From IMG/VR virus record IMGVR_UViG_2565956721_000004, positions 1 to 31,930 of that record: DNA of 31,930 bases. The stretch is one strand, 5' to 3'. Each line of letters starts with the position of its first letter. Within the stretch, counting starts at the first letter, position 1. The notes beneath the pieces are model-generated. The model was given only the letters and a program-made list of their open reading frames with translations. It ran no database searches and was not told where the DNA came from. Source of the stretch: a virus. Lineage: Duplodnaviria; Heunggongvirae; Uroviricota; Caudoviricetes. Below, in pieces: positions 4,409 to 17,151 of the stretch. A program made the translations under genes and the position numbers.

Positions 4409-7207
4409 ATGTGGGGAAGTGAAAACAAACAAAATCTGGACGTACTGGATCCTGTGCAGTTGGTGCGTATCGAAGCGGTACACCGGGGGTTCCTTTACCA
4501 GCATCTTTACGCTGTAGGCTGCTTACTTTTGGCGCAGAGGGCTGCTATGGACTCAGTAACTGTCGAGCTTGATGAGGATATTGAGCTGAAATCCAAACAG
4601 GAACGTCTCTACATTCAGGTTAAAACCCGTTCAAAACCTATTATGCCCAACGATGTGTCGGGGGCTCTGGAGCGATTTGTAAAGCTCAGAAATGAGCATA
4701 CTTCGGCAAACCGCGAAGGGGTGGCTTCTTTTGTGATTATTGTAAACCAGGCGCCTGGACCGCTGCTTCAGAAGATGATTGACGATAAAAAGCTTCCTTC
4801 TGATGTTCTTATTGTCTGGCCCCAGTCGATAGCTGGACGTCACCCGGCACTTCCGCCCGCATGGAGTACTCTGGCTGATGCGGCCACATGGTGTATCGCA
4901 GAAGCAGAAAAGCTGAAATTTTCACTATTGTCCCCAGAATCCTTGATTTGGAAGTTAGCAGGATTGGTTCAGCTTGCCGCCACCGGAGGCGATACCAATG
5001 GACAACATACGTTTTTCACGGAAGAACTTACTGAACTATTTGAACAGTTGATCGTTCAGCTACAGGACTTTCCTGCACCACCAGCACTGTACCGCCCACA
5101 AAACGAAGAACCTTCTCTCACATCTGGTGAGCGGATCCGTATCCTTTGTGGACTCTCAGGTGCAGGCAAGACAGCTTGGGCCGCACAGGCCGCATTACAC
5201 TCCACTGCACTTTGTGCTTATTACGACACCGGTGATCTTCCCGGTCCAGCTCTGGCCAGTACGCTGGTGCGCGAGATGGCTGCTAGATTTACAGCCCGTG
5301 ACCAAGACGGTTTGCGCAGGATTTTGCTCCCCGGTGCCAGTGGTTTTGAGGCTCTTAGGAGTTTTGATACCTACCTGAAAGAGCAGGGTACCACCTTGGT
5401 GCTGGTTCTGGATAACGCCCATCGTGTACCTGCGGAAAATCTACGGGATGTTCTGAATGCAACTACACATATTCGTTTTGTGCTGTTGTGCCAGCCTCAC
5501 GAAAACGTTCGCGAACTGGAGGTCATGACGGGGCTACAGCGCGAGGGCCTGCAGGGATGGAATCTCGATACGGTAGCTGTCGTTGTAAACGATATCGGAG
5601 GATTTGCCACCGCTATGGGATACGAGCAGCTACGGGCTTACACTGGTGGTCTTCCCCTGTATGTAGAGAGCGCCGCAAAAATCGCCGTTTCTGATTATGA
5701 GCGTAATGTCGATGCTCTGTGTGCTGAACTCCAGCAACAAACCCATACTGCGGAAACCGCCCAAGAAATTATTCTGTCACGTGTATTTCAGGGATTTGAA
5801 TCACTACTTCAGAGCGCGCTGGCATTGTTCAGTCTCTCTGACGTAGGGCTGAGTCGCGAAGAGATTTCTACGCTCCTAATCAATTCGCTGAACATTTCAC
5901 CAAGCAGTGCGGCTTCTTTAATTAGGAAAATGCGCGCTACTGGCACTATTGAAATTTATGGAAACCAGACCCTGAAGGTACATGATGCTGTCAGGGGGCT
6001 AGGACTGCAACATCTGGAACTGATGGATCAGGGTATATCGAACAAAGCGCTACTAGCGCTGAAAGACCTTTTAGTTGAAAGTCTTCATAATACCCGCAAT
6101 ACAAAACGGTTATCGTTGTTGACTCAACTTTATATTAAGCTCAATGATGTCACGACGTTGATCGAACTCTCAGGCCAAGAAATGTTTTATGAGATGGGCG
6201 TGACGGTCGACATTCTTGCAAGCTTGGAGCGTGCTGCAACATCGGACTTATTGGGACCTGTTCATAAATTCTGGGCATTGGATGGCCTTGTTTTCGTTGA
6301 GCTTAAAGACGGAATATCCGACCACATTGCTCAGAGGTTAAACATCATGGGAGCTTTACTTGCGGAGCACAAGTTCGGCTATCAAGAAGAGATGGCCTAT
6401 GCAATGAAACGAATGTTATTTTCGGCAGAAAGCAATGATGCACGAGAAGTTCAAAAGCTGGCACAGGAAGTCCGCCCCCAACTCCCAGATGAAGAACATA
6501 AACGCATCTTTGACTACAACCATGCCATTGCACTCTGGAGATTAAAAAAACTCAAGGATGCTGAAACATTAAGCTGTAATGTTATACAAGGGTACTATTC
6601 TTTATTTGGTATCACACCTGCTGATGTCATAGGAAAAAACGCCGACGCATTATGGAAAACTATTAATCATTCCGAAAATATGCAGGAACACTTTAAACAT
6701 ATGGCTGATGCTCTGGAGTTGCTGGCCAGAATTCGTGATGCGCAGGGAAAACTGTCACCATTACTGCGTATTCATTCGATGAAGTTCTACAATCTGGCCA
6801 TGGCCCCGGAATCCATGGTCAGGGTGGGCCAAGATCTGGCGGATGAGTTTGTTGCCATAAAGGATTACGACGGTGCCAAGGAAGTCATGGAGCAACATGT
6901 CCTGCCGGTTGTCAATGAGGCAGGTCTAGTACATCGACTGATTCAGGTTCGAAGCCAATACGCAGTCATATTGGCACTATCGGGTCAGCATAAAGCAGCT
7001 GATGTCGAAATGCAGCGCCTTGCTCCCTATATCGAAGGCCTCACAGGTGTACAGCGTCAAGAAATCCAAAATCAATCAAATTACATCGTACAGCTTGCCC
7101 ATAAAGCAGCAAAGACTAAATTAACTGAAGTTTTTGGTGCGGTCGGCCGGAATGAACAATGCCCCTGTGGCTCGGGAATAAAGTACAAAAAATGTCACGG
7201 TGCCTGA
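4409..7207 (+). CDS. STAND-type P-loop NTPase with N-terminal Mrr-like nuclease-type domain, TPR-like helical C-terminal region and terminal SEC-C zinc motif (candidate antiphage sensor)
   Basis: 932-aa ORF with AAGGA RBS. Motifs read from the translation: D55...Q70-V-K72 (hhhQxK, Mrr/PD-(D/E)xK-like); Walker A G248-LSGAGKT255 (nt 5150-5173); Walker B L330-VLVLDN336; GLPL motif 414-417 (NB-ARC/STAND hallmark); long helical repeat region; C918-P-C920-GSGIKYKK-C929-H930 (SEC-C type). Fold and function are inferred. Confidence 0.85.
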   Translation: MWGSENKQNLDVLDPVQLVRIEAVHRGFLYQHLYAVGCLLLAQRAAMDSVTVELDEDIELKSKQERLYIQVKTRSKPIMPNDVSGALERFVKLRNEHTSANREGVASFVIIVNQAPGPLLQKMIDDKKLPSDVLIVWPQSIAGRHPALPPAWSTLADAATWCIAEAEKLKFSLLSPESLIWKLAGLVQLAATGGDTNGQHTFFTEELTELFEQLIVQLQDFPAPPALYRPQNEEPSLTSGERIRILCGLSGAGKTAWAAQAALHSTALCAYYDTGDLPGPALASTLVREMAARFTARDQDGLRRILLPGASGFEALRSFDTYLKEQGTTLVLVLDNAHRVPAENLRDVLNATTHIRFVLLCQPHENVRELEVMTGLQREGLQGWNLDTVAVVVNDIGGFATAMGYEQLRAYTGGLPLYVESAAKIAVSDYERNVDALCAELQQQTHTAETAQEIILSRVFQGFESLLQSALALFSLSDVGLSREEISTLLINSLNISPSSAASLIRKMRATGTIEIYGNQTLKVHDAVRGLGLQHLELMDQGISNKALLALKDLLVESLHNTRNTKRLSLLTQLYIKLNDVTTLIELSGQEMFYEMGVTVDILASLERAATSDLLGPVHKFWALDGLVFVELKDGISDHIAQRLNIMGALLAEHKFGYQEEMAYAMKRMLFSAESNDAREVQKLAQEVRPQLPDEEHKRIFDYNHAIALWRLKKLKDAETLSCNVIQGYYSLFGITPADVIGKNADALWKTINHSENMQEHFKHMADALELLARIRDAQGKLSPLLRIHSMKFYNLAMAPESMVRVGQDLADEFVAIKDYDGAKEVMEQHVLPVVNEAGLVHRLIQVRSQYAVILALSGQHKAADVEMQRLAPYIEGLTGVQRQEIQNQSNYIVQLAHKAAKTKLTEVFGAVGRNEQCPCGSGIKYKKCHGA

Positions 7208-7484
7208 GTCTTTGTACGACCATGCGGGCCTTATTGTCTTGCTATTGCTCTTATGGTTCGCCTTTCTGATTGATTTCATATTGGCGAGGTGACGGGAGTT
7301 AAGTAGAATGGCTGCGGGTGCTTGAGGCTATCTGTCTCAGGCATGAACACCAAAGGCAGATAGAGAAAAGCCCCAGTTAACATTACGCGTCCTGCAAGAC
7401 GCTTAACATTAATCTGAGGCTCAATCTATGAACGGCAAATCTAGGTTAGCCTCTTACGTGCCGAAAGGCAAGGAGAAGCAGGCT

Positions 7485-7640
7485 ATGAAGCAGCAAAAGG
7501 CGATGTTAATCGCCCTGATCGTCATCTGTTTAACCGTCATTGTGACGGCACTGGTAACGAGGAAAGACCTCTGCGAGGTACGAATCCGAACCGGCCAGAC
7601 GGAGGTCGCTGTCTTCACAGCTTACGAACCTGAGGAGTAA
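7485..7640 (+). CDS. hokD: Hok/Gef-family type I toxin (HokD/RelF-like), with overlapping upstream mok-like frame starting 7428
   Basis: 51 aa MKQQKAMLIALIVICLTVIVTALVTRKDLCEVRIRTGQTEVAVFTAYEPEE: single transmembrane helix plus conserved Hok C-terminal motif; matches HokD as I recall it. Confidence 0.8.
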   Translation: MKQQKAMLIALIVICLTVIVTALVTRKDLCEVRIRTGQTEVAVFTAYEPEE

Positions 7641-7708
7641 GAGACCTGGCGGGGGAGAAATCCCTCGCCACCTCTGATGTGTCAGGCATCCTCAACGCAC
7701 CCGCACTT

Positions 7709-7728
7709 AACCCGCTTCGGCGTTTTTT
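7709..7728 (+). terminator. Short GC hairpin (CCGCTTCGGCG) + T6 after hok
   Basis: Read directly; stem is short, so strength is uncertain. Confidence 0.35.
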
Positions 7729-7783
7729 CCGTTGATTAACTCTAGTTATTAGAGAACCGAACTTTTATTGATGGGGCAGGGAG

Positions 7784-8176
7784 ATGAAGAAACTTGTTTT
7801 AGTCGCAGGTGTAATGATTGCAACAGTAATGTTGGGAGGGTGTGCAGCAAAGGTCGATCCAGCGTTGAAAGCAGAAGCAATGAAGCCACTAACATGTAAT
7901 GATGAAAAGCAATGTGACTTTTATTGGAAACGAGCGCAATTCTGGTTGGCTAATAATTCCTCATGGAAAATTCAAACGGCGACAGACACGCTAATTTCCA
8001 CTTATAATCCCTCTCCAAATAGTCCATTCCTCGCTTATCAAGTGAGTAAAATGCCAAATGAAGATGGATCCTCAAGAATTTTCATCAAGCCTTTTTGCGA
8101 TAATATGTTTGGCTGTCAACCAAACCCCTATCAGGCAGTTGTTTCCTTTAAAAACTTCGTTAAAACAGGGCAGTAG
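7784..8176 (+). CDS. Secreted lipoprotein of unknown function (cargo; possible superinfection-exclusion factor)
   Basis: GGGCAGGGAG RBS; signal peptide with lipobox MLGG-C (MKKLVLVAGVMIATVMLGGC); four further Cys in the mature part. Not part of the Qin backbone as I recall it. Confidence 0.6.
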   Translation: MKKLVLVAGVMIATVMLGGCAAKVDPALKAEAMKPLTCNDEKQCDFYWKRAQFWLANNSSWKIQTATDTLISTYNPSPNSPFLAYQVSKMPNEDGSSRIFIKPFCDNMFGCQPNPYQAVVSFKNFVKTGQ

Positions 8177-8375
8177 TGTATAGCTTGGACGATAAATTAT
8201 TAGTGAAAACGCCGTAAACCCTCACCCAATGTGGACTAAGTCTATCAAACATGACTGTGATGATTAGTCCGTAGTTGTTGCCTATGAAATCTGGATTGAG
8301 TCAGGGTTTAATCCAATAATTATTCTATCGTTCCTTTACAAGTCCGGTATATTACTTTCAGTTTGTTTTAGCATA

Positions 8376-8400
8376 CCCGCTTCGGCGGGTTTTGTTTTTT
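8376..8400 (+). terminator. Intrinsic terminator CCCGCTTCGGCGGG + TTTTGTTTTTT
   Basis: Strong GC hairpin with tetraloop and U-tract; it overlaps the track start of ORF 8392, arguing that ORF starts later. Confidence 0.6.
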
Positions 8401-8472
8401 CCTGGCATTCTGGTTTACAATTCGCACGCCAGCCTGAACAACTGGCACCTGCTGCGCCAGCAGAGACAACCG

Positions 8473-8751
8473 ATGGCGCACGATACCAAATTACACAATT
8501 CTGATGATTTTGCCGTCTTTGCCAGCAGGCACGGGCGGCGTTCCCGCACTTTCAAATCTGACTGGTTCCAGCATGACCCATGCACTGAAGAACAGGCCGA
8601 GTGGCTAATTCAGTGCTACCGCAGACACGGATACGAGATTAAGAAAGCCCTCAGCCTCGATTATCGTCACTGGATAATCTCCGTCAGGCTTCCTTACTCC
8701 GAACGCCCACCGCGTCCGTCCCGCACATTCCAGCAACGCATCTGGAGGTAA
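8473..8751 (+). CDS. Hypothetical small protein (positionally Rem-like)
   Basis: Internal ATG at 8473 downstream of the terminator, in frame with track ORF 8392-8751; sits between hok and the DUF968 gene as rem does in Qin (recalled). Weak RBS. Confidence 0.4.
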   Translation: MAHDTKLHNSDDFAVFASRHGRRSRTFKSDWFQHDPCTEEQAEWLIQCYRRHGYEIKKALSLDYRHWIISVRLPYSERPPRPSRTFQQRIWR

Positions 8752-9811: not shown

Positions 9812-10177
9812 ATGACTGAACGCATAGAATTTGTTTTGCCTTACCCGCCGACGGTGAATACCTACTGGCGACGTCATGGCAATACGTATTTCATCTCGGA
9901 AGCCGGAAAGCGTTATCGCCGTGATGTGGCGCTAATTGTTCGCCAGCAGCGGCTGAAATTAAGCCTGTCCGGAAGGCTGGCGATAAAGATTATTGCAGAG
10001 CCACCGGATAAGCGCCGCCGCGACCTGGACAATATCCTGAAGGCACCACTGGATGCGCTTACGCATGCCGGACTACTTATAGACGACGAGCAGTTTGATG
10101 AAATCAATATTGTGCGCGGTCAGCTCGTTCCTGGTGGGCGGCTGGGGATAAAAATCACAGAACTGGAGTGCGCATGA
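9812..10177 (+). CDS. rusA: Holliday-junction resolvase RusA
   Basis: 121 aa; the conserved RRRDLDN...KA..DALT.AG...DD motif block matches RusA. Confidence 0.85.
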   Translation: MTERIEFVLPYPPTVNTYWRRHGNTYFISEAGKRYRRDVALIVRQQRLKLSLSGRLAIKIIAEPPDKRRRDLDNILKAPLDALTHAGLLIDDEQFDEINIVRGQLVPGGRLGIKITELECA

Positions 10178-10863
10178 ATAACCAGTATTTACAGTTTGTG
10201 CGTGAGCAGCTCATTATCGCCACCGCTGATTTGAGTGGGGCAACAAAAGGTCAGCTTGAAGCCTGGCAAGAGAATGCCATGTTCGATACAGGGCGTTACA
10301 GGCGAAAAAAAATCCGGTACCGCGATGAAGTGACTGGAAAAATGATAACGCGGGATAATCCACCAATCCCGGGAAAGCAATCGCTGGCGAAGGGGACGTC
10401 AATTCCTCTGGTCAGTCCGGTTGAGTTTTCGACATCATCGTGGCGGCGGGCTGTTCTGTCTCTTGAAGAACATCATAAAGCCTGGTTGTTGTGGTGTTAC
10501 AGCGGGAGTATTTGTTGGGAATATCAGATCGCGATAACACAGTGGGCGTGGAATGAATTTAATACTCAATCCGGTACCAGAAAAATTGCAGGGAAAACGC
10601 AGGAACGCCTGAAAAAATTAATCTGGCTGGCGGCGCAGGCAGTAAAAGCAGAACTTTTTGGTGGGGAAGGTTATGAATACCAGGAGCTGGCATTACTGGC
10701 GGGAGTGACAACTAAAAACTGGTCCAAAACATTTACTCGTCACTGGGTTGCAATGAAACACATTTTTCACCGACTGGATAGTGAGGCTTTATTGTTTGTA
10801 ATGAGAACACGTTCAAAACAAAAGGCGGCATTTTCAAAGCAAAGTGTTGCAAAAGTAGATTGA
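10174..10863 (+). CDS. Putative late-gene antiterminator (Q-like), assigned mainly by position
   Basis: ATG 10174 overlaps rusA stop (ATGA) with GGAG RBS; it is the last gene before the PR'/tR'-like promoter-terminator pair, tRNAs and lysis genes. No motif-level confirmation. Confidence 0.45.
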   Translation: MNNQYLQFVREQLIIATADLSGATKGQLEAWQENAMFDTGRYRRKKIRYRDEVTGKMITRDNPPIPGKQSLAKGTSIPLVSPVEFSTSSWRRAVLSLEEHHKAWLLWCYSGSICWEYQIAITQWAWNEFNTQSGTRKIAGKTQERLKKLIWLAAQAVKAELFGGEGYEYQELALLAGVTTKNWSKTFTRHWVAMKHIFHRLDSEALLFVMRTRSKQKAAFSKQSVAKVD

Positions 10864-10875
10864 AAGGCATATATT
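10847..10875 (+). promoter_or_regulatory. PR'-like late promoter: -35 TTGCAA, 17-bp spacer, -10 TATATT
   Basis: Near-consensus sigma70 promoter overlapping the 3' end of the Q-like gene, about 55 nt upstream of an intrinsic terminator. Confidence 0.45.
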
Positions 10876-10930
10876 TCATGCAAATCTGATATTTTGCCGA
10901 TTTTGTACGTGATGGCAAAAGCAAACAAAA

Positions 10931-10953
10931 CCCGCCCACAAGCGGGTTTTTTT
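10931..10953 (+). terminator. tR'-like intrinsic terminator (CCCGC-CCACAA-GCGGG + T7)
   Basis: Read directly; A-run upstream and U-run downstream could make it bidirectional. Confidence 0.6.
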
Positions 10954-11035
10954 ATGCCACTTATCTCGGATAGACATGGTGAATGCGCTGGTGGAGGAAG
11001 TAAGGGTGATTTTTAACCAGGTGATTTTTGAATGC

Positions 11036-11064
11036 TTGCAACATTGATTTCGTAACGTTATTAT
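11036..11064 (+). promoter_or_regulatory. tRNA-cluster promoter: -35 TTGCAA, 17-bp spacer, -10 TATTAT
   Basis: Read directly; ends about 10 nt before the first tRNA. Confidence 0.5.
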
Positions 11065-11073
11065 CCTGCGCCC

Positions 11074-11149
11074 GGCCCTTTAGCTCAGTGGTGAGAGCGA
11101 GCGACTCATAATCGCCAGGTCGCTGGTTCAAATCCAGCAAGGGCCACCA
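11074..11149 (+). tRNA. tRNA-Ile2 (anticodon CAU, ileX-like; formally could decode Met)
   Basis: Cloverleaf folded by hand: acceptor GGCCCTT/AAGGGCC, anticodon loop CTCATAA, T-loop TTCAAAT, 3' CCA; close to E. coli ileX as recalled. Confidence 0.8.
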
Positions 11150-11150
11150 A

Positions 11151-11227
11151 CCGCCACTAGCTCATCAGGAAAGAGCGTCAACCCTTTAAGTTGAGTGTGC
11201 GAGGTTCGAGTCCCCGGTGGCGGTCCA
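11151..11227 (+). tRNA. Atypical tRNA-like gene, anticodon UUU (Lys) with C at position 33 and 5'-CC start
   Basis: Hand fold: acceptor CCGCCAC/GTGGCGG, U8, D-loop with GG, anticodon stem TCAAC/GTTGA with loop CCTTTAA, T-loop TTCGAGT (one A-C mismatch in T-stem), CCA end. It is only 1-2 nt from its neighbours. Confidence 0.5.
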
Positions 11228-11229
11228 GT

Positions 11230-11305
<76 letters not shown>

Positions 11306-11308
11306 TAT

Positions 11309-11383
<75 letters not shown>

Positions 11384-11676
11384 GTTAGAGTCTTTCAGTC
11401 TGCGATGATGGGAAATCCCGGAGTGACTGAAAGACGTTTAAGTTATGAATGATCGCTTTTTTTTTGCAAAATTGCTGTGCAGAAATACTAACCTTCGGGC
11501 AGGCGATCATTCATAAGCACTCTGCTTTTATTCCGATTAACTGTGAGTGGTTTGTTGGATAGAGTGCTTTCCTTACTGTATATATCGTTTCGCCCGCTTT
11601 TGCGGTTTTTTCTTTTCAAATCCCTTTCATTTCTCAGTGTAAAACTACGCCATCCGTTATTTGCGGAGGTGAGGCT

Positions 11677-11892
11677 ATGAAATCCATGGACAAAATTTCA
11701 ACGGGCATTGCCTACGGCACCTCCGCAGGCAGTGCTGGCTACTGGTTTTTACAGTGGCTTGATCAGGTCAGTCCGTCACAGTGGGCTGCGATTGGTGTAC
11801 TGGGGAGTCTGGTTCTGGGCTTCCTGACATATCTGACTAACCTGTATTTCAAAATCAGAGAGGACCGTCGTAAGGCTGCACGGGGAGAGTAA
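11677..11892 (+). CDS. Class II holin / pinholin (phage 21 S21-type, dual-start motif MKSMDK)
   Basis: 71 aa, two transmembrane segments, charged C-terminus; sequence matches S21 pinholin as recalled. Confidence 0.85.
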
Positions 11893-11896
11893 TTCA

Positions 11897-12247
11897 ATGA
11901 CTCAAAACTATGAACTGATTGTGAAAGGGATCCGCAATTTTGAGAATAAAGTTACGGTAACTTTAGCGTTACGGGACAAAAAACGCTTTGACGGTGAAAT
12001 TTTTGACCTGGACATCTCGCTGGACCGTGTTGAAGGTGCCGCGCTGGGGTTTTATGAGGCAGCAGCCAGAAGGAGCATCAGACAGGTCTTCCTGGATGTT
12101 GCTGCCGGGTTATGTGAAGGGGATGAGCAGTCGCCGGAAAAGCGCCCCGTAATTTTAGAGGCGCAGAATGTGTGGATAACCTACAAAGGAAAGCTACCAG
12201 GAAGAATTACTGGTTCTCTGAAGACTCCTCCGGAATCACAACCTTAA
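11897..12247 (+). CDS. YdfR-like protein (DUF1327-type) inserted between holin and endolysin
   Basis: 116-aa ORF between holin and lysozyme, the same position as ydfR in Qin (recalled). Confidence 0.5.
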   Translation: MTQNYELIVKGIRNFENKVTVTLALRDKKRFDGEIFDLDISLDRVEGAALGFYEAAARRSIRQVFLDVAAGLCEGDEQSPEKRPVILEAQNVWITYKGKLPGRITGSLKTPPESQP

Positions 12248-12310
12248 GTCACTGACCGGAACAGATAAACCTGTCCGTGGGCAGAAACCGATAAATCCTG
12301 ATAAATATCC

Positions 12311-12844
12311 ATGAACGCAAAAATCAGATACGGCCTGTCGGCTGCCGTTCTGGCACTGATTGCCGTCGGTGCGCCCGCGCCTGATATTCTCGACCAGTTT
12401 CTGGATGAAAAAGAAGGTAACCACACAACGGCATACCGCGATGGTTCCGGCATCTGGACCATCTGTCGGGGTGCCACGATGGTGGATGGAAAACCCGTTT
12501 TTCCCGGTATGAAACTGTCGAAGGAAAAATGCGACCAGGTCAACGCCATTGAGCGTGATAAGGCGCTGGCATGGGTGGAGCGCAATATTAAAGTACCACT
12601 GACCGAACCACAAAAAGCGGGTATCGCGTCATTTTGTCCCTATAACATTGGCCCCGGTAAGTGTTTTCCATCGACGTTTTATAAGCGGCTGAATGCTGGT
12701 GATCGTAAGGGCGCATGCGAGGCGATTCGCTGGTGGATAAAAGATGGTGGGCGCGATTGCCGCATACGTTCAAATAACTGCTATGGACAGGTTATTCGTC
12801 GTGACCAAGAAAGCGCATTAGCCTGTTGGGGAATAGATCAGTGA
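12311..12844 (+). CDS. SAR endolysin (T4-lysozyme-like muramidase with N-terminal signal-anchor-release helix)
   Basis: N-terminal hydrophobic SAR segment [16 protein letters not shown]; catalytic E...D...T pattern in [20 protein letters not shown]; pairs with the pinholin. Confidence 0.85.
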
Positions 12845-13308
12845 GCAGAGTCGCCGCGATTATTTATGCTCTGGTTATCTGCATCATCGTCTGCCTGTCG
12901 TGGGCGGTCAATCATTACCGTGATAACGCCATCACCTACAAAGAACAGCGTGATAAAAAAGTCAGTGAGCTGAAGCAGCTGACCGCCACCATCGCTGACA
13001 TGCAGCAGCGTCAGCGTGATGTTGCTGCGCTCGATGCAAAGTACTCGAGAGAATTAGCCAATGCGAAAGCTGAAAATGAAACTCTGCGCGCTGATGTTGC
13101 CGCTGGTCGTAAGCGCCTGCGGGTCAATGCCAGTTGCTCCGCAGCCGTGCGTGAAGCCACCGGACCCACCAGCGTGGATAATGCAACCAGCCCCAGACTG
13201 GCAGACACCGCTGAACGGGATTATTTCACCCTCAGAGAACGGTTGATGACGATGCAGAAGCAACTGGAAGGGGCACAGCTATACATTCGTGAGCAATGTC
13301 TCAGATAA
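12841..13308 (+). CDS. Rz-type i-spanin
   Basis: GTG start overlapping the endolysin stop (GTGA); N-terminal transmembrane helix then coiled-coil periplasmic domain; contains the embedded Rz1 gene. Confidence 0.8.
13061..13246 (+). CDS. Rz1-type o-spanin (Pro-rich outer-membrane lipoprotein embedded in Rz in the +1 frame)
   Basis: [20 protein letters not shown] lipobox and proline-rich mature part; fully embedded within Rz. Confidence 0.75.
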
Positions 13309-13463
13309 AAACCGGCCAAGGATAATCCGCTAAAGATTCGCCGGTGGCGAAAGAGAGCCAAGGTGTCAACCTACGCTATTACTTATGATAATGCAACAGA
13401 CGAAGCGGGACATATTGGCGCATAACAAATCAGTGCAGGCTAACTGCAGGAAGAACTTAGGGC

Positions 13464-13730
13464 GTGAACGTAGAAAACCTAAGTAACGCACATTACATCT
13501 ATAACGAGATGAAAGAGCTACAGCGACAGAAAGGTATACTGGAAAGTGGTGCAGGGCTTGGTGTGACAATCCAGTCTGCCTATCAATATAGTGCTTTTCT
13601 TGAGGCCATACGCCCGCATGCAGTTGCTGAACTTAACAGCCGTATTGAGGAAAAGAAATCCGCGCTGGTTAATTTGGGTGCTTCCTTCTCTATATACGAG
13701 CATAATAAGGCGGGTTGGAAACCCGCCTAA
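13464..13730 (+). CDS. Hypothetical small protein
   Basis: GTG start with AGGAAG RBS 10 nt upstream; no recognisable motifs; its 3' end encodes a GC hairpin (13700-13730). Confidence 0.35.
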   Translation: MNVENLSNAHYIYNEMKELQRQKGILESGAGLGVTIQSAYQYSAFLEAIRPHAVAELNSRIEEKKSALVNLGASFSIYEHNKAGWKPA

Positions 13731-13735
13731 AGCAC

Positions 13736-14275
13736 TTAGAAACTGCGTGGAGCTGTGGAAAGAATGGATGCCAGTTCTTCCTTCGATAAATCCCAGCTTC
13801 GATTTACAGCGTCAATTTTCTTAAACTCATCAAGCATTGCGTTATAGAGATGTTCTGTACGTGAATGAGTATTGGCAATGGGCTGTTTCTGTTCGGGGAA
13901 GCGATCAATTTTCTGATATGCCTCAATGATACTGAAGTAATCGCATTCATTATTACCGTCGAAACCTGGGAGCTGAATTGCCCCATCATGTATTTTTAGA
14001 TGATGGTCACGGACTAATTCTTTTTGCTCGTCATCACTAAGTTTCCTGAAAGCATTGGAAAGTCCGCGATACATATTCAAGACAGCAGTAACAAAATCAC
14101 GATCTTCTTTACTTGGTTCGTCAACATCCAAATGTGAATATTCGGCCTTGATAACCCAATCATTACCAGATGACACAGCATATTTAACAAGCTGTGGATC
14201 AATATCAGTTTCGATACCTAGGTGGATGGCAATGTCACATAACAAAATGGTATTGATTTTATCTTTAATATCCAT
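13736..14275 (-). CDS. YfbU-family (UPF0304-like) protein, antisense moron between lysis and packaging modules
   Basis: 179 aa, GAGGGT RBS; resembles E. coli YfbU in LPGFDGNNECDYF...THSRTEHLYNAMLDEF versus YfbU FLGFDAATEARY...THGFNAQTPMWEKY (recalled); opposite orientation to all neighbours. Confidence 0.55.
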   Translation of the reverse strand: MDIKDKINTILLCDIAIHLGIETDIDPQLVKYAVSSGNDWVIKAEYSHLDVDEPSKEDRDFVTAVLNMYRGLSNAFRKLSDDEQKELVRDHHLKIHDGAIQLPGFDGNNECDYFSIIEAYQKIDRFPEQKQPIANTHSRTEHLYNAMLDEFKKIDAVNRSWDLSKEELASILSTAPRSF

Positions 14276-14413
14276 GAGTTAACCCTCTGAAGTAAAAAGT
14301 AATATCTACACCCGTTGGCTCATGAAGTCTATTGATCTGTCTCATATCAGCAGCAAATCTATTCCATGGAGATACTCAATGCAGGTCACCTTTGATTTAT
14401 ATAAGGGCGAAAC

Positions 14414-14764
14414 ATGCCAGCACTAATCCCACGCGCCTGCCGTAAGCGTGGATGTGCAGGTACAACCACAGACAGTTCTGGTTACTGCGATAAACATCGT
14501 GGCGAAGGATGGGTACAGCATCAACGCGGACTGAGCCGCCACCAGCGTGGCTATGGCTCGAAATGGGATGCCATACGTGCGCGCATACTGAAGCGTGATA
14601 ATCATCTGTGTCAGAACTGCCTGCGCAATGGGAGAGCCGTTGAAGCCAGAACTGTGGACCACATCATTCCGAAAGCTCATGGTGGCACGGATGCAGACAG
14701 TAACCTGCAGAGTCTGTGCTGGCCCTGTCATAAAGCAAAAACAGCGCGCGAACGCATCAATTGA
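14414..14764 (+). CDS. HNH endonuclease (terminase-associated)
   Basis: Cys-rich N-terminus plus HNH core VDHIIPKAHGGTDADSNLQSLCWPCHKAK; located immediately upstream of terminase genes. Confidence 0.8.
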   Translation: MPALIPRACRKRGCAGTTTDSSGYCDKHRGEGWVQHQRGLSRHQRGYGSKWDAIRARILKRDNHLCQNCLRNGRAVEARTVDHIIPKAHGGTDADSNLQSLCWPCHKAKTARERIN

Positions 14765-14911
14765 TAACAGCTCCCATCTGCAGGGGAGGGGCGGGTCAAA
14801 TCTCTGCAACCCTGGCTGTTCAGTACCGCCGCCTGACCTTTCCTCGCATCGCCGCAGGTTCGAAAACTTTTTTTTGGAATGTGATTAAATGATTGATAGG
14901 TAAAACCGATT

Positions 14912-15394
14912 ATGTCTGGACCCCCGAAAATCCCGCCACGCCTGCATTTGATACGAGGCAACCCCTCAAAGCGGCCAGTTAAAGACCTCAAAAAAACCGC
15001 TAAAAAGGATGAAAAAGGTCTCCCTAAAATTCCGCAACATTTAGGGGCGCAGGGGAAGTACTGGTTCAGGCGAATGGCGGAAGAGCTGAATGCGGAAGGG
15101 ATCATTTCTCAGCTTGATGCGCGTGCGCTTGAGCTACTGGTGGAAGCCTATACCGAATACCGGCATCACTGCGAAACACTCGATGTTGAGGGGTACACCT
15201 ACCGCTCGGAAACGCAGAACGGTGATGTGCTGATTAAGGCACACCCGGCTGCTGCGATGAAAGCGGATGCCTGGAAGCGGATCCGGGCGATGCTTGCAGA
15301 ATTTGGTATGTCACCGGCAAGCCGGGCAAAAGTAAATACCGCCGGACCGGATAATGTTGATCCGCTGGCAGAGCTTTTAAAAGCGAGAGACTGA
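14912..15394 (+). CDS. Terminase small subunit (P27 family)
   Basis: 160 aa with typical P27-type sequence; stop overlaps the start of the large terminase. Confidence 0.75.
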   Translation: MSGPPKIPPRLHLIRGNPSKRPVKDLKKTAKKDEKGLPKIPQHLGAQGKYWFRRMAEELNAEGIISQLDARALELLVEAYTEYRHHCETLDVEGYTYRSETQNGDVLIKAHPAAAMKADAWKRIRAMLAEFGMSPASRAKVNTAGPDNVDPLAELLKARD

Positions 15395-17151
15395 TGGCAA
15401 AAGTGGCTGACGGGATCCGCTACGCCGAACGTGTTGTTGCAGGAGAAATTGTTGCTGGCGAATTTGTCCGCCTGGCCTGCCAGCGTTTTCTTGATGATCT
15501 GAAGTACGGCGAAAAGCGGGGGATTTATTTCAGTGAACCCCGTGCGCAGCACATCCTGAATTTCTACAAATTTGTGCCTCATGTAAAAGGGGCACTGGCA
15601 GGCCAGCCCATTGAGTTGATGGACTGGCATGTATTTATCCTCATTAATATTTTTGGTTTTGTCATTCCGCTGGTCAATGAAGAAACCGGGGAAGTTGTCA
15701 TGCGCAGCGATGGCAGCGGACGTCCGGTGATGGTGCGCCGGTTCCGGACGGCGTACAACGAAGTCGCCCGTAAAAACGCAAAATCAACACTGTCATCGGG
15801 TATCGGCCTGTATATGACGGGGGCAGATAGTGAAGGCGGAGCTGAGGTGTATTCAGCCGCAACCACGCGTGACCAGGCCAGAATCGTGTTTGAAGACGCC
15901 AAAAATATGGTCAGAAAAGCCCGGTCGACACTCGGGCGGTTGTTTGATTTCAACAAGCTGGCGATTTACCAGGAGCAGAGCGCATCAAAATTTGAACCGC
16001 TTTCCTCGGATGCAAACAACCTGGACGGTCTGAACATCCACTGCGCCATTATTGATGAGCTGCATGCACATAAAACCCGCGACGTGTGGGACGTTCTGGA
16101 AACGGCAACCGGTGCCCGTCTGCAGTCCCTGTTATTTGGTATCACCACGGCTGGCTTTAACAAGGAAGGGATTTGTTACGAGCAGCGTGATTACGCCATC
16201 AAGGTATTGCGAGGCTATAACAGCGACGTGGAGGGCGCTGTAAAAGACGACTCTTACTTTGCGATCATTTACACGCTTGATGAGGGAGATGATCCGTTTG
16301 ATGAAACGGTCTGGCAGAAAGCGAATCCTGGCCTGGGCATCTGTAAACGCTGGGATGATCTGCGTCGTCTGGCGAAAAAAGCGAAGGAGCAGGTCTCTGC
16401 GCGGGTGAATTTTTTTACCAAACACATGAATGTGTGGGTCACTGCCGAATCTGCCTGGATGGATATGATTAAGTGGGAGAAGTGCGAATACATTGCTCCA
16501 CAACATGAGCTGAAAACATATCCCATGTGGGTCGGCGTCGACCTTGCTCATAAGATTGATATCTGTGCGGCGGCAAAACTCTGGCGAACCGATAACGGAC
16601 ATGTTCATGCTGATTTTAAATTCTGGCTTCCGGAAGGACGGCTGGAACGATGCTCGCGGCAGCAGGCAGAACTTTACCGGAAGTGGGCGGAGATGGATAA
16701 GCTCATCCTGACGGATGGTGATGTTATCGATCATGCTCAGATAAAAAGTGACTTACTGGAATGGATTGGCGGTGAAAACCTCAGGGAACTGGGATTTGAC
16801 CCGTGGAGCGCAATGCAGTTCAGCCTGGCACTGGCTGAAGAAGGGATACCGCTGGTGGAGGTTCCGCAGACGGTCCGCAATCTGTCAGAGGCCATGAAGG
16901 AAACGGAATCACTGGTTTATGCCGGGCGTTTCCATCACAGCAATCATCCGGTCATGAACTGGATGATGTCTAACGTTACTGTAAAACCGGACAAAAACGA
17001 CAACATCTTCCCGAATAAATCCACGCCGGAAGCCAAAATCGACGGCCCTGTTGCGCTTTTTACAGCCATGAGCCGCTTTCTGGTAAATGGAGGGGGCGTG
17101 AATGACTTTCTGTCCACGCTTGATCCTGATGAGGACCTGTTAATTCTGTGA
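15394..17151 (+). CDS. Terminase large subunit (ATPase + nuclease)
   Basis: 585 aa; ATGA overlap with the small subunit; nuclease-region acidic motifs (e.g. AIIDELHAH); immediately precedes the portal. Confidence 0.9.
   Translation: MAKVADGIRYAERVVAGEIVAGEFVRLACQRFLDDLKYGEKRGIYFSEPRAQHILNFYKFVPHVKGALAGQPIELMDWHVFILINIFGFVIPLVNEETGEVVMRSDGSGRPVMVRRFRTAYNEVARKNAKSTLSSGIGLYMTGADSEGGAEVYSAATTRDQARIVFEDAKNMVRKARSTLGRLFDFNKLAIYQEQSASKFEPLSSDANNLDGLNIHCAIIDELHAHKTRDVWDVLETATGARLQSLLFGITTAGFNKEGICYEQRDYAIKVLRGYNSDVEGAVKDDSYFAIIYTLDEGDDPFDETVWQKANPGLGICKRWDDLRRLAKKAKEQVSARVNFFTKHMNVWVTAESAWMDMIKWEKCEYIAPQHELKTYPMWVGVDLAHKIDICAAAKLWRTDNGHVHADFKFWLPEGRLERCSRQQAELYRKWAEMDKLILTDGDVIDHAQIKSDLLEWIGGENLRELGFDPWSAMQFSLALAEEGIPLVEVPQTVRNLSEAMKETESLVYAGRFHHSNHPVMNWMMSNVTVKPDKNDNIFPNKSTPEAKIDGPVALFTAMSRFLVNGGGVNDFLSTLDPDEDLLIL

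Follow-up and report, generated by a model that had tools for sequence, protein, structure and literature searches.

An optional YfbU-fold gene at the lysis–packaging junction of a lambdoid Escherichia coli prophage resembles the anti-phage protein Kamadhenu

Introduction

The bor gene of phage lambda is a moron that lies downstream of Rz and opposite to the late operon, and its product is an outer-membrane lipoprotein that confers serum resistance. Upstream of the packaging module lies a site known for defence morons, namely the Tai systems of E. coli phages such as phi80 (PMC11364771). The YfbU domain, for its part, has been linked to defence by Kamadhenu, a single-gene, 180-amino-acid (aa) YfbU-domain anti-phage system of the abortive-infection (Abi) kind, which is encoded by the Lactococcus plasmid pUCCL624_130 (Grafakou et al. 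2024, PMC11381338). Phages that escaped Kamadhenu were all altered at G22 of a Sak-like single-strand annealing protein (SSAP) (Mosterd et al. 2025, PMC12184496), and phage DNA replication, transcription and translation were unaffected (PMC13064643), indicating that a later step of infection is concerned. Here, we describe a YfbU-family gene in the virus record IMGVR_UViG_2565956721_000004 of IMG/VR, which was analysed over its whole length of 31,930 nucleotides (hereafter the window). From the letters of the sequence, this gene had been proposed to be an independently transcribed accessory gene, or moron, between the lysis and packaging genes, possibly related to defence or fitness (hereafter the original prediction).

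The RefSeq name "YfbU family protein", the classical moron concept and, since 2024, YfbU-domain defence are already known. In the searchable literature, we found neither prophage-borne YfbU genes nor their strict placement between lysis and packaging genes reported, and no description of two-gene operons combining a membrane-helix protein with a YfbU-like protein.

Results

The YfbU gene is optional cargo at the lysis–packaging junction

The window is a lambdoid E. coli prophage with an HK97-type head, and many E. coli chromosomes (e.g. CE10) as well as the induced phage vB_EcoS-611R1 match its region 13300-14500 with 100% identity. The junction consists of the following elements (positions in the window; ORF, open reading frame).

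12826-13308, plus strand: Rz i-spanin, last gene of the lysis cassette and left flank (Pfam Phage_lysis, E 1.6e-49)
13279-14413, no strand assigned: cargo segment, 1135 bp here and 72 bp in phages Evi and PhiR49_2
13464-13730, plus strand: 88-aa ORF with a GTG start
13736-14275, minus strand: YfbU gene, 179 aa, 20.6 kDa, pI 4.9
14414-14764, plus strand: HNH endonuclease of the HK97-type packaging module, right flank (Pfam HNH, E 1.9e-16; also named so by the Prokaryotic Genome Annotation Pipeline, PGAP)

As the original prediction had described, the 179-aa ORF runs opposite to all its flanks; it is the sole minus-strand gene of the stretch from the Q gene to the head module. PGAP places WP_000351660.1 ("YfbU family protein") and WP_001100260.1 (the likewise predicted 88-aa ORF) at the same coordinates in E. 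coli CE10.

Pairwise alignment showed that the homology to Evi and PhiR49_2 stops at 13278, within the last Rz codons, and restarts at 14414, the ATG of the HNH gene, while the 72 bp of their junction is unrelated to the window sequence. Partial matches to other lambdoid phages gave breakpoints at 13362 and 14414; because these phages share 13300-13362, the module-specific part is approximately 13363-14413. Among 5426 complete E. coli genomes, the junction was filled in 224 and an empty Rz-HNH junction was present in 184. The YfbU gene is also missing from isolated phages whose HNH proteins are 91-98% identical and whose terminase modules are similar. Klebsiella and Salmonella modules match the window from 13394 or 13465 to about 14766 at ~84% nucleotide identity. 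In base composition, the YfbU gene with its upstream spacer (GC 0.391, GC3 0.339) differs from the neighbouring genes (0.51-0.54 and 0.56, respectively), the GC content of the window being 51%. The locus thus shows several traits of a moron in the sense of Hendrix and Juhala, namely an insertion between genes that are adjacent in relatives, a terminator hairpin and an atypical base composition. Together with the recurrence of such hairpins and the purifying selection described below, these results demonstrate that the 179-aa gene is optional cargo at the lysis–packaging junction and support its reading as a moron, in agreement with the original prediction.

The junction position recurs in distant viral relatives

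A scan of IMG/VR yielded 177 viral stretches with YfbU relatives, and lysis and packaging proteins were mapped onto 77 distinct loci. In 51 of these loci, the YfbU gene is preceded by packaging genes and followed by lysis genes, which all run on the opposite strand; a further 23 had one recognisable flank with the same orientation, three had no recognisable flank, and the match was weak and ambiguous in one locus. This arrangement is kept across 28-100% YfbU identity. It spans at least three types of endolysin (lysozyme, GH19 and GH108), combined with different holins and spanins, as well as at least two types of terminase (HK97/P27 with HNH, and lambda GpA/DUF1441). Individual homologues in Enterobacter, Klebsiella and Salmonella assemblies are arranged alike, and a 29%-identical homologue lies between Rz and HNH in a Pantoea prophage.

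Several individual loci may be recorded here. E. coli MS8345 (NZ_CP025401.1) carries two prophages, one with a filled Rz-p88-YfbU-HNH junction and one with an empty Rz-HNH junction. In four prophages (L009:5516-7886, L134:3872-5901, L145:3849-5911 and L172:3851-5907), two late-strand genes stand between the HNH and YfbU genes, encoding a protein of 485-492 aa with a weak, sub-threshold match to GT2 glycosyltransferases and a protein of ~200 aa; through such insertions, the lysis–packaging junction accumulates further cargo. In Megasphaera sueciensis (L004:6666-8934), a 36%-identical YfbU-like gene with a truncated N-terminus stands, as read from the translations, between an upstream ORF for an IS256-like transposase and a downstream HNH-like ORF. 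If this reading is right, the adjacency of YfbU and HNH would reach beyond Enterobacterales.

The encoded protein is a distant paralogue of chromosomal YfbU

Profile and structure searches bore out the family assignment of the original prediction. The Pfam model YfbU (PF03887/UPF0304) matched residues 46-172 with 46.3 bits (gathering threshold, GA, 25; E 6.5e-12), and the protein was assigned to phrog_6084 of PHROGs, which bears no function label. An AlphaFold2 model built from 35 homologues, with a mean predicted local distance difference test (pLDDT) score of 90.3, has the two-domain, all-helical YfbU fold. The profile of the window family matched the structures 1WPB and 4LR3 of E. coli chromosomal YfbU (E 4.1e-9), and just residues 54-173 align to 1WPB at the sequence level. 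The BFVD viral fold library returned only one weak YfbU-like match. PADLOC 2023 matched neither the 179-aa nor the 88-aa protein, a null result that is uninformative because Kamadhenu post-dates this library. A weak Pfam match to the Cfr10I/Bse634I nuclease (18 bits, GA 27) was taken as noise, and no signal peptide was evident, no formal signal-peptide test having been made.

Strong homology to a housekeeping protein with no prophage association would have argued against a moron. The protein scored 34.8 bits with the NCBIfam equivalog NF003936 (PRK05445), the cutoff of which is 90, and its relatives occupy 77 viral loci. On these scores, it classifies as a distant paralogue of core YfbU and not as the housekeeping gene. 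Nine residues are invariant in the subfamily (C13, A33, W40, G104, F105, D106, E110, H137 and Y144), and those from G104 to Y144 fall in a GFDGNNE...NTH...Y pattern, the conserved residues of which are likely to form a functional site. The ratio of non-synonymous to synonymous substitution rates (dN/dS) of the YfbU gene was 0.12-0.13 against alleles of 88-94% nucleotide identity, indicating clear purifying selection and excluding the possibility of a decaying remnant.

Relationship to Kamadhenu and the wider genomic context

The lactococcal comparator was a 180-codon YfbU-like gene on plasmid pUCCL629C from the Kamadhenu strain collection, whose identity with Kamadhenu is assumed; pUCCL629C is the only lactococcal plasmid in PLSDB with a YfbU-like gene, which is frameshifted in the record. 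A tblastn search of plasmids with the window protein stopped short of Lactococcus, and a Christensenella homologue was used as a stepping stone. Comparison of the window family profile with the pUCCL629C gene by hhalign gave a probability of 97.9% (E 4.8e-13, 29% identity over 130 columns), and pairwise BLASTP of the window protein with the pUCCL629C product gave an E-value of 3e-8 over 70 residues. The motifs GFDGN(N/E)E, N-(S/T)-H and Y are common to both sides. The window gene also has the single-gene layout, with 179 aa, one YfbU domain and no neighbour conserved across clades. The defence role that the original prediction had raised as a possibility thereby gains a precedent by analogy, in the form of a single-gene 180-aa YfbU-domain system (PMC11381338, PMC12184496).

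A HMMER search of 1.84 billion representative sequences found 2082 family members at E<=1e-3, 834 of them at E<=1e-10. On small plasmids (3.4-5.4 kb), YfbU homologues are among the few non-backbone genes, and on an 8-kb plasmid a homologue adjoins a gene for an "Abi family protein". Distant chromosomal homologues adjoin genes for type I restriction-modification (R-M) HsdR, JukA-like, TIR and FRG proteins. This wider genomic context supports a defence role.

A separate observation concerns 80 species-level bacterial loci that carry distant (25-35% identical), GFDGNNE-type YfbU-like genes. In 29 of them (L011, L014-L016, L018, L019, L022-L024, L027-L029, L031-L033, L036, L037, L040, L041, L043, L045, L049, L051, L052, L054, L055, L059, L064 and L080), a conserved ORF of 166-173 aa with an N-terminal hydrophobic helix lies directly upstream on the same strand, as in L036, where the partner ORF occupies 7469-7969 and the YfbU-like gene 7971-8543. 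The partner matched nothing in Pfam or PADLOC, and among the neighbours of these loci are genes for type I HsdR, JukA-like and TIR proteins. Judged from this layout, the two genes probably form an operon, which may be an undescribed defence system. The partner is absent from all 77 phage loci and from the window.

A different role for the window protein is conceivable, in which the prophage YfbU would tune the survival or death of the host after DNA damage or induction. The window protein and chromosomal YfbU have the fold in common; chromosomal yfbU has been described as a "death gene" for mazEF-linked killing, and yfbU deletion mutants survive killing by DNA damage (PMC2646832). Furthermore, an Acinetobacter yfbU homologue is expressed less after mitomycin C and has an elevated basal expression in a ddrR mutant (PMC10808703). 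However, the window protein falls below the YfbU equivalog cutoff and keeps motif residues that chromosomal YfbU does not have, and every E. coli already possesses yfbU. The recurrence of the family on phages and small plasmids, and beside R-M, TIR and JukA genes, better fits defence. We therefore regard a role in host survival or death as unlikely, an Abi protein and a "death" protein not being mutually exclusive.

Transcription and translation signals of the YfbU gene

The ATG at 14275 is preceded by the Shine–Dalgarno (SD) sequence GAGGG at 14287-14283 with a 7-nt spacer, in line with the good ribosome-binding site of the original prediction. The signals around the gene are listed below.

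14276-14413, minus strand: upstream region of the YfbU gene, divergent from HNH
14346-14341, minus strand: conserved T[AG]TGAG box (within 14339-14346), from the alignment of upstream regions
14331-14326, minus strand: candidate -35 element TAGACT, hand-scored
14306-14301, minus strand: candidate -10 element GATATT, hand-scored
13708-13729, minus strand: GC-rich hairpin AGGCGGGUU-UCC-AACCCGCCU, with a 9-bp stem and a 3-nt loop, followed by UUAUUAU

The hairpin (dG -17.9 kcal/mol, z -2.8 versus dinucleotide shuffles) begins 6 nt past the YfbU stop codon and sits within the last 8 codons of the 88-aa ORF. Since UUAUUAU comes after it on the minus strand, whereas the plus-strand continuation, UAAAGCAC, is not U-rich, it has the appearance of a terminator that serves the minus-strand gene only. 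Its imperfect U-tract is the reason why a strict terminator scan did not call it. A GC hairpin likewise follows the stop codon in most of the 19 diverged homologue loci compared, with differing stems and frequently a U-tract. The hairpin at 13708-13729 is thus likely to be an intrinsic terminator of the YfbU gene. The original prediction had placed a convergent terminator at 13700-13730; the hairpin itself is confirmed within narrower limits.

The best hand-scored sigma-70 candidate has an 8/12 match and a 19-nt spacer, with GATATT lying 25 nt from the ATG. When 11 upstream regions of genes whose proteins are 58-100% identical were aligned, TGTGAG, AT[AG]GACT, G.GT....AT.A and the SD sequence proved to be kept amid otherwise diverged sequence, the T[AG]TGAG box lying 8-10 nt upstream of the AT[AG]GACT block. 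In the window, these blocks coincide with the weak hand-scored candidate. These signals make a promoter of the YfbU gene plausible, and this promoter may need an activator. By eye, the TGTGA box resembles a CRP half-site and, given a transcription start near 14294, would be spaced as in a class II activator-dependent promoter. No conserved LexA box was seen upstream of the YfbU gene on inspection by eye.

The 88-aa ORF belongs to the late operon

The 88-aa ORF matched phrog_5415 over residues 1-76 (E 2e-38) and gave no match in Pfam, NCBIfam or PADLOC. Its family comprises 276 homologue clusters, mostly of 76 aa, from Citrobacter, Salmonella, Klebsiella and E. coli. In the E. coli allele, the stop codon is lost and 12 extra codons (13692-13730) run into the YfbU terminator hairpin; the extension is a lineage-specific read-through of the 76-aa family. 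The dN/dS of the ORF was 0.2-0.45, and one IMG/VR allele (L124:6549-6812) has an internal stop. The AlphaFold2 model (pLDDT 77) consists of two long helices forming a helical hairpin; since this hairpin is generic and a PDB fold search with the model gave no significant match, we propose no function for the protein.

The two genes could be conceived of as a convergently transcribed two-gene system, e.g. an inhibitor and an effector. They occur together in all 35 viral loci with at least 88% YfbU identity, as well as in Klebsiella and Salmonella prophages, and the hairpin region is common to both. In contrast, none of the 15 loci at 45-88% and none of the 27 loci at <45% YfbU identity has the small ORF, and with 42 of the 77 viral loci lacking it, an obligate partnership was rejected. 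The allele with an internal stop speaks against such a system, too, and in the IMG/VR prophage L125 (6541-8110) about 1.5 kb, including a 112-aa ORF without a Pfam match, separates the YfbU gene from the 76-aa-family gene, so the pair can be split. In Salmonella prophages, moreover, the ATG of the small ORF overlaps the stop codon of the preceding lysis-cassette ORF (ATGA), suggesting translational coupling to that ORF; this overlap also marks the exact point from which the Salmonella sequences are homologous to the window. The linkage of the two genes is explained by the recent shared descent of a block consisting of the 76-aa-family, YfbU and HNH genes (p76-YfbU-HNH; ~84% nucleotide identity across genera). 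A two-gene system is thus improbable. We read the 88-aa ORF as a separate small gene of the late operon and not as a partner of YfbU; found only with the closest YfbU clade, it does not belong to the moron unit.

Other features of the window

The remaining genes around the junction follow the order of a lambdoid prophage, as listed below.

10168-10863, plus strand: Q antiterminator
11074-11383, plus strand: four tRNA genes (Met-CAT, Lys-TTT, Thr-TGT and Gly-TCC), between Q and holin
From 11677, plus strand: P21-type holin
From 11897, plus strand: YdfR/DUF1327
From 12311, plus strand: lysozyme
13061-13246: Rz1, embedded within Rz
From 14912, plus strand: P27-family small terminase subunit (TerS)
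From 15394, plus strand: large terminase subunit (TerL), followed by the portal, protease and capsid genes of the HK97-type head module

The packaging module also matched Pfam Terminase_4 (E 5e-25). An Rfam scan of 10500-15500 found the four tRNAs only, none of them within the region of the YfbU gene and the 88-aa ORF; the tRNA sets vary among related phages, e.g. Met/Thr/Gly or Met/Arg/Arg. The CE10 annotation was inapplicable to the left half of the window, where the early region matches strain FDN-4 instead. In this half, a 932-aa ORF (4409-7207, plus strand), flanked by replication genes and hokD, has an N-terminal Cap4-like dsDNA nuclease domain (27.1 bits, GA 26.2), an AAA_22 ATPase domain, a C-terminal SEC-C motif and a weak match to the LmuA N-terminus in PADLOC, making it a second candidate for defence cargo of the prophage.

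Discussion

By analogy with Kamadhenu, we consider it on balance probable that the YfbU protein acts as a solo Abi or superinfection-immunity protein expressed in the lysogen. In such a scenario, a weak or regulated promoter of its own would drive the gene in the lysogen, and the protein would stay dormant until a superinfecting phage supplies a trigger. This trigger might be linked to the single-strand annealing or recombination protein of the phage, as the Kamadhenu escape mutants suggest, and the triggered protein would then block a late step of infection. During lytic growth of the prophage itself, Q-antiterminated late transcription running antisense through the YfbU gene would tend to silence it, which could serve as a built-in avoidance of self-targeting.

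Several points weigh against an Abi role. The defence call goes back to one lactococcal precedent, with ~29% identity over just the C-terminal 130 columns, and at the sequence level no alignment of the N-terminal 35-50 residues was obtained with either the lactococcal protein or canonical YfbU. The pUCCL629C comparator is frameshifted and its equation with Kamadhenu is an assumption, and Kamadhenu itself was assayed on a high-copy vector. The defence-island neighbours are known from a handful of loci. A standard sigma-70 scan of the minus strand over 14276-14413 returned no promoter, the best candidate matching at just 8 of 12 positions, and the antisense silencing is purely what we infer. For the window protein and its enterobacterial relatives, a defence role is predicted by analogy.

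A more general proposal, which we put forward tentatively and hold to be possible rather than probable, is that YfbU-fold proteins with the GFDGNNE/N-x-H motif constitute a widespread and largely unrecognised anti-phage family. It would come in three guises: solo antisense morons at the lysis–packaging junction of enterobacterial prophages, solo cargo of small plasmids including Kamadhenu, and the two-gene operon of defence islands with its membrane-helix partner. The core "death gene" yfbU would represent a relative that has been domesticated, and convergent late transcription would switch the Abi gene off at induction.

The position of the gene raises the question of whether YfbU instead assists the phage's own packaging, cos cleavage or lysis timing. 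In 74 of the 77 viral loci, it lies next to TerS/HNH and the lysis cassette, and the closest clade moves as the p76-YfbU-HNH block. Nevertheless, the gene runs against the late operon and is followed by a terminator hairpin of its own, close relatives of the packaging module do without it, and it accompanies unrelated terminases and different endolysins; homologues are also found on plasmids and chromosomes away from any phage genes. An accessory function in the lytic cycle is thus very doubtful.

Variable accessory regions of phages also hold anti-defence genes, and an inhibitor of a host immune system could well be small, acidic and helical like the YfbU protein. Such a counter-defence role has the least to recommend it, however, as anti-defence genes are normally early and co-oriented with the early or late operons rather than antisense units with their own terminators, resistance is conferred, not relieved, by the sole family member tested (PMC11381338), and chromosomal homologues are part of defence islands, where they often share a two-gene operon with a membrane-helix protein.

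If lysogens prove to be protected, Kamadhenu/YfbU immunity would extend from dairy lactococci to prophages in ~4% of complete E. coli genomes, including those of extraintestinal pathogenic E. coli (ExPEC) strains such as CE10, as well as to Klebsiella and Salmonella. It would provide a model of a Kamadhenu-type defence protein that is tractable in E. coli, add a further defence moron to the lysis–packaging junction of lambdoid phages, and give reason to re-examine the core protein YfbU. If there is no anti-phage effect, it would still have to be explained why YfbU genes keep so strictly to one position and orientation at this junction.

Comparison with known systems

With morons of the lambda bor type, the YfbU gene has in common the location after Rz, the opposite strand, an own terminator and an atypical composition, and the expression in lysogens presumed for the former is likewise assumed for the latter. 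The Bor protein, however, is unrelated to the YfbU-fold protein. The Tai proteins are unrelated to YfbU as well, and their mechanism, a block of tail assembly, is known. E. coli chromosomal YfbU (1WPB, 4LR3) shows 15% structural identity to the window protein; it has GFDAATE and N-A-Q where the mobile forms, including the window protein, have GFDGNNE and N-T-H, and it is a core gene whereas the window gene is cargo. The YfbU-like proteins of the defence-island operons are homologous to the window protein (25-35% identity) and carry the GFDGNNE motif, but they come with a membrane-helix partner, while the window gene stands alone.

The closest described system is Kamadhenu, which, like the window gene, is a single gene for an acidic protein of about 180 aa with one YfbU domain, borne by a mobile element. 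The two differ in that Kamadhenu resides on a plasmid of a Gram-positive bacterium and the YfbU gene in a prophage of a Gram-negative one, and in that the lactococcal protein is nearer to canonical YfbU (E 3e-17) than the window protein is (E 4e-9 with the profile). For Kamadhenu, an Abi-like phenotype with escape through the SSAP has been tested, whereas for the window protein a defence role is predicted from this likeness.

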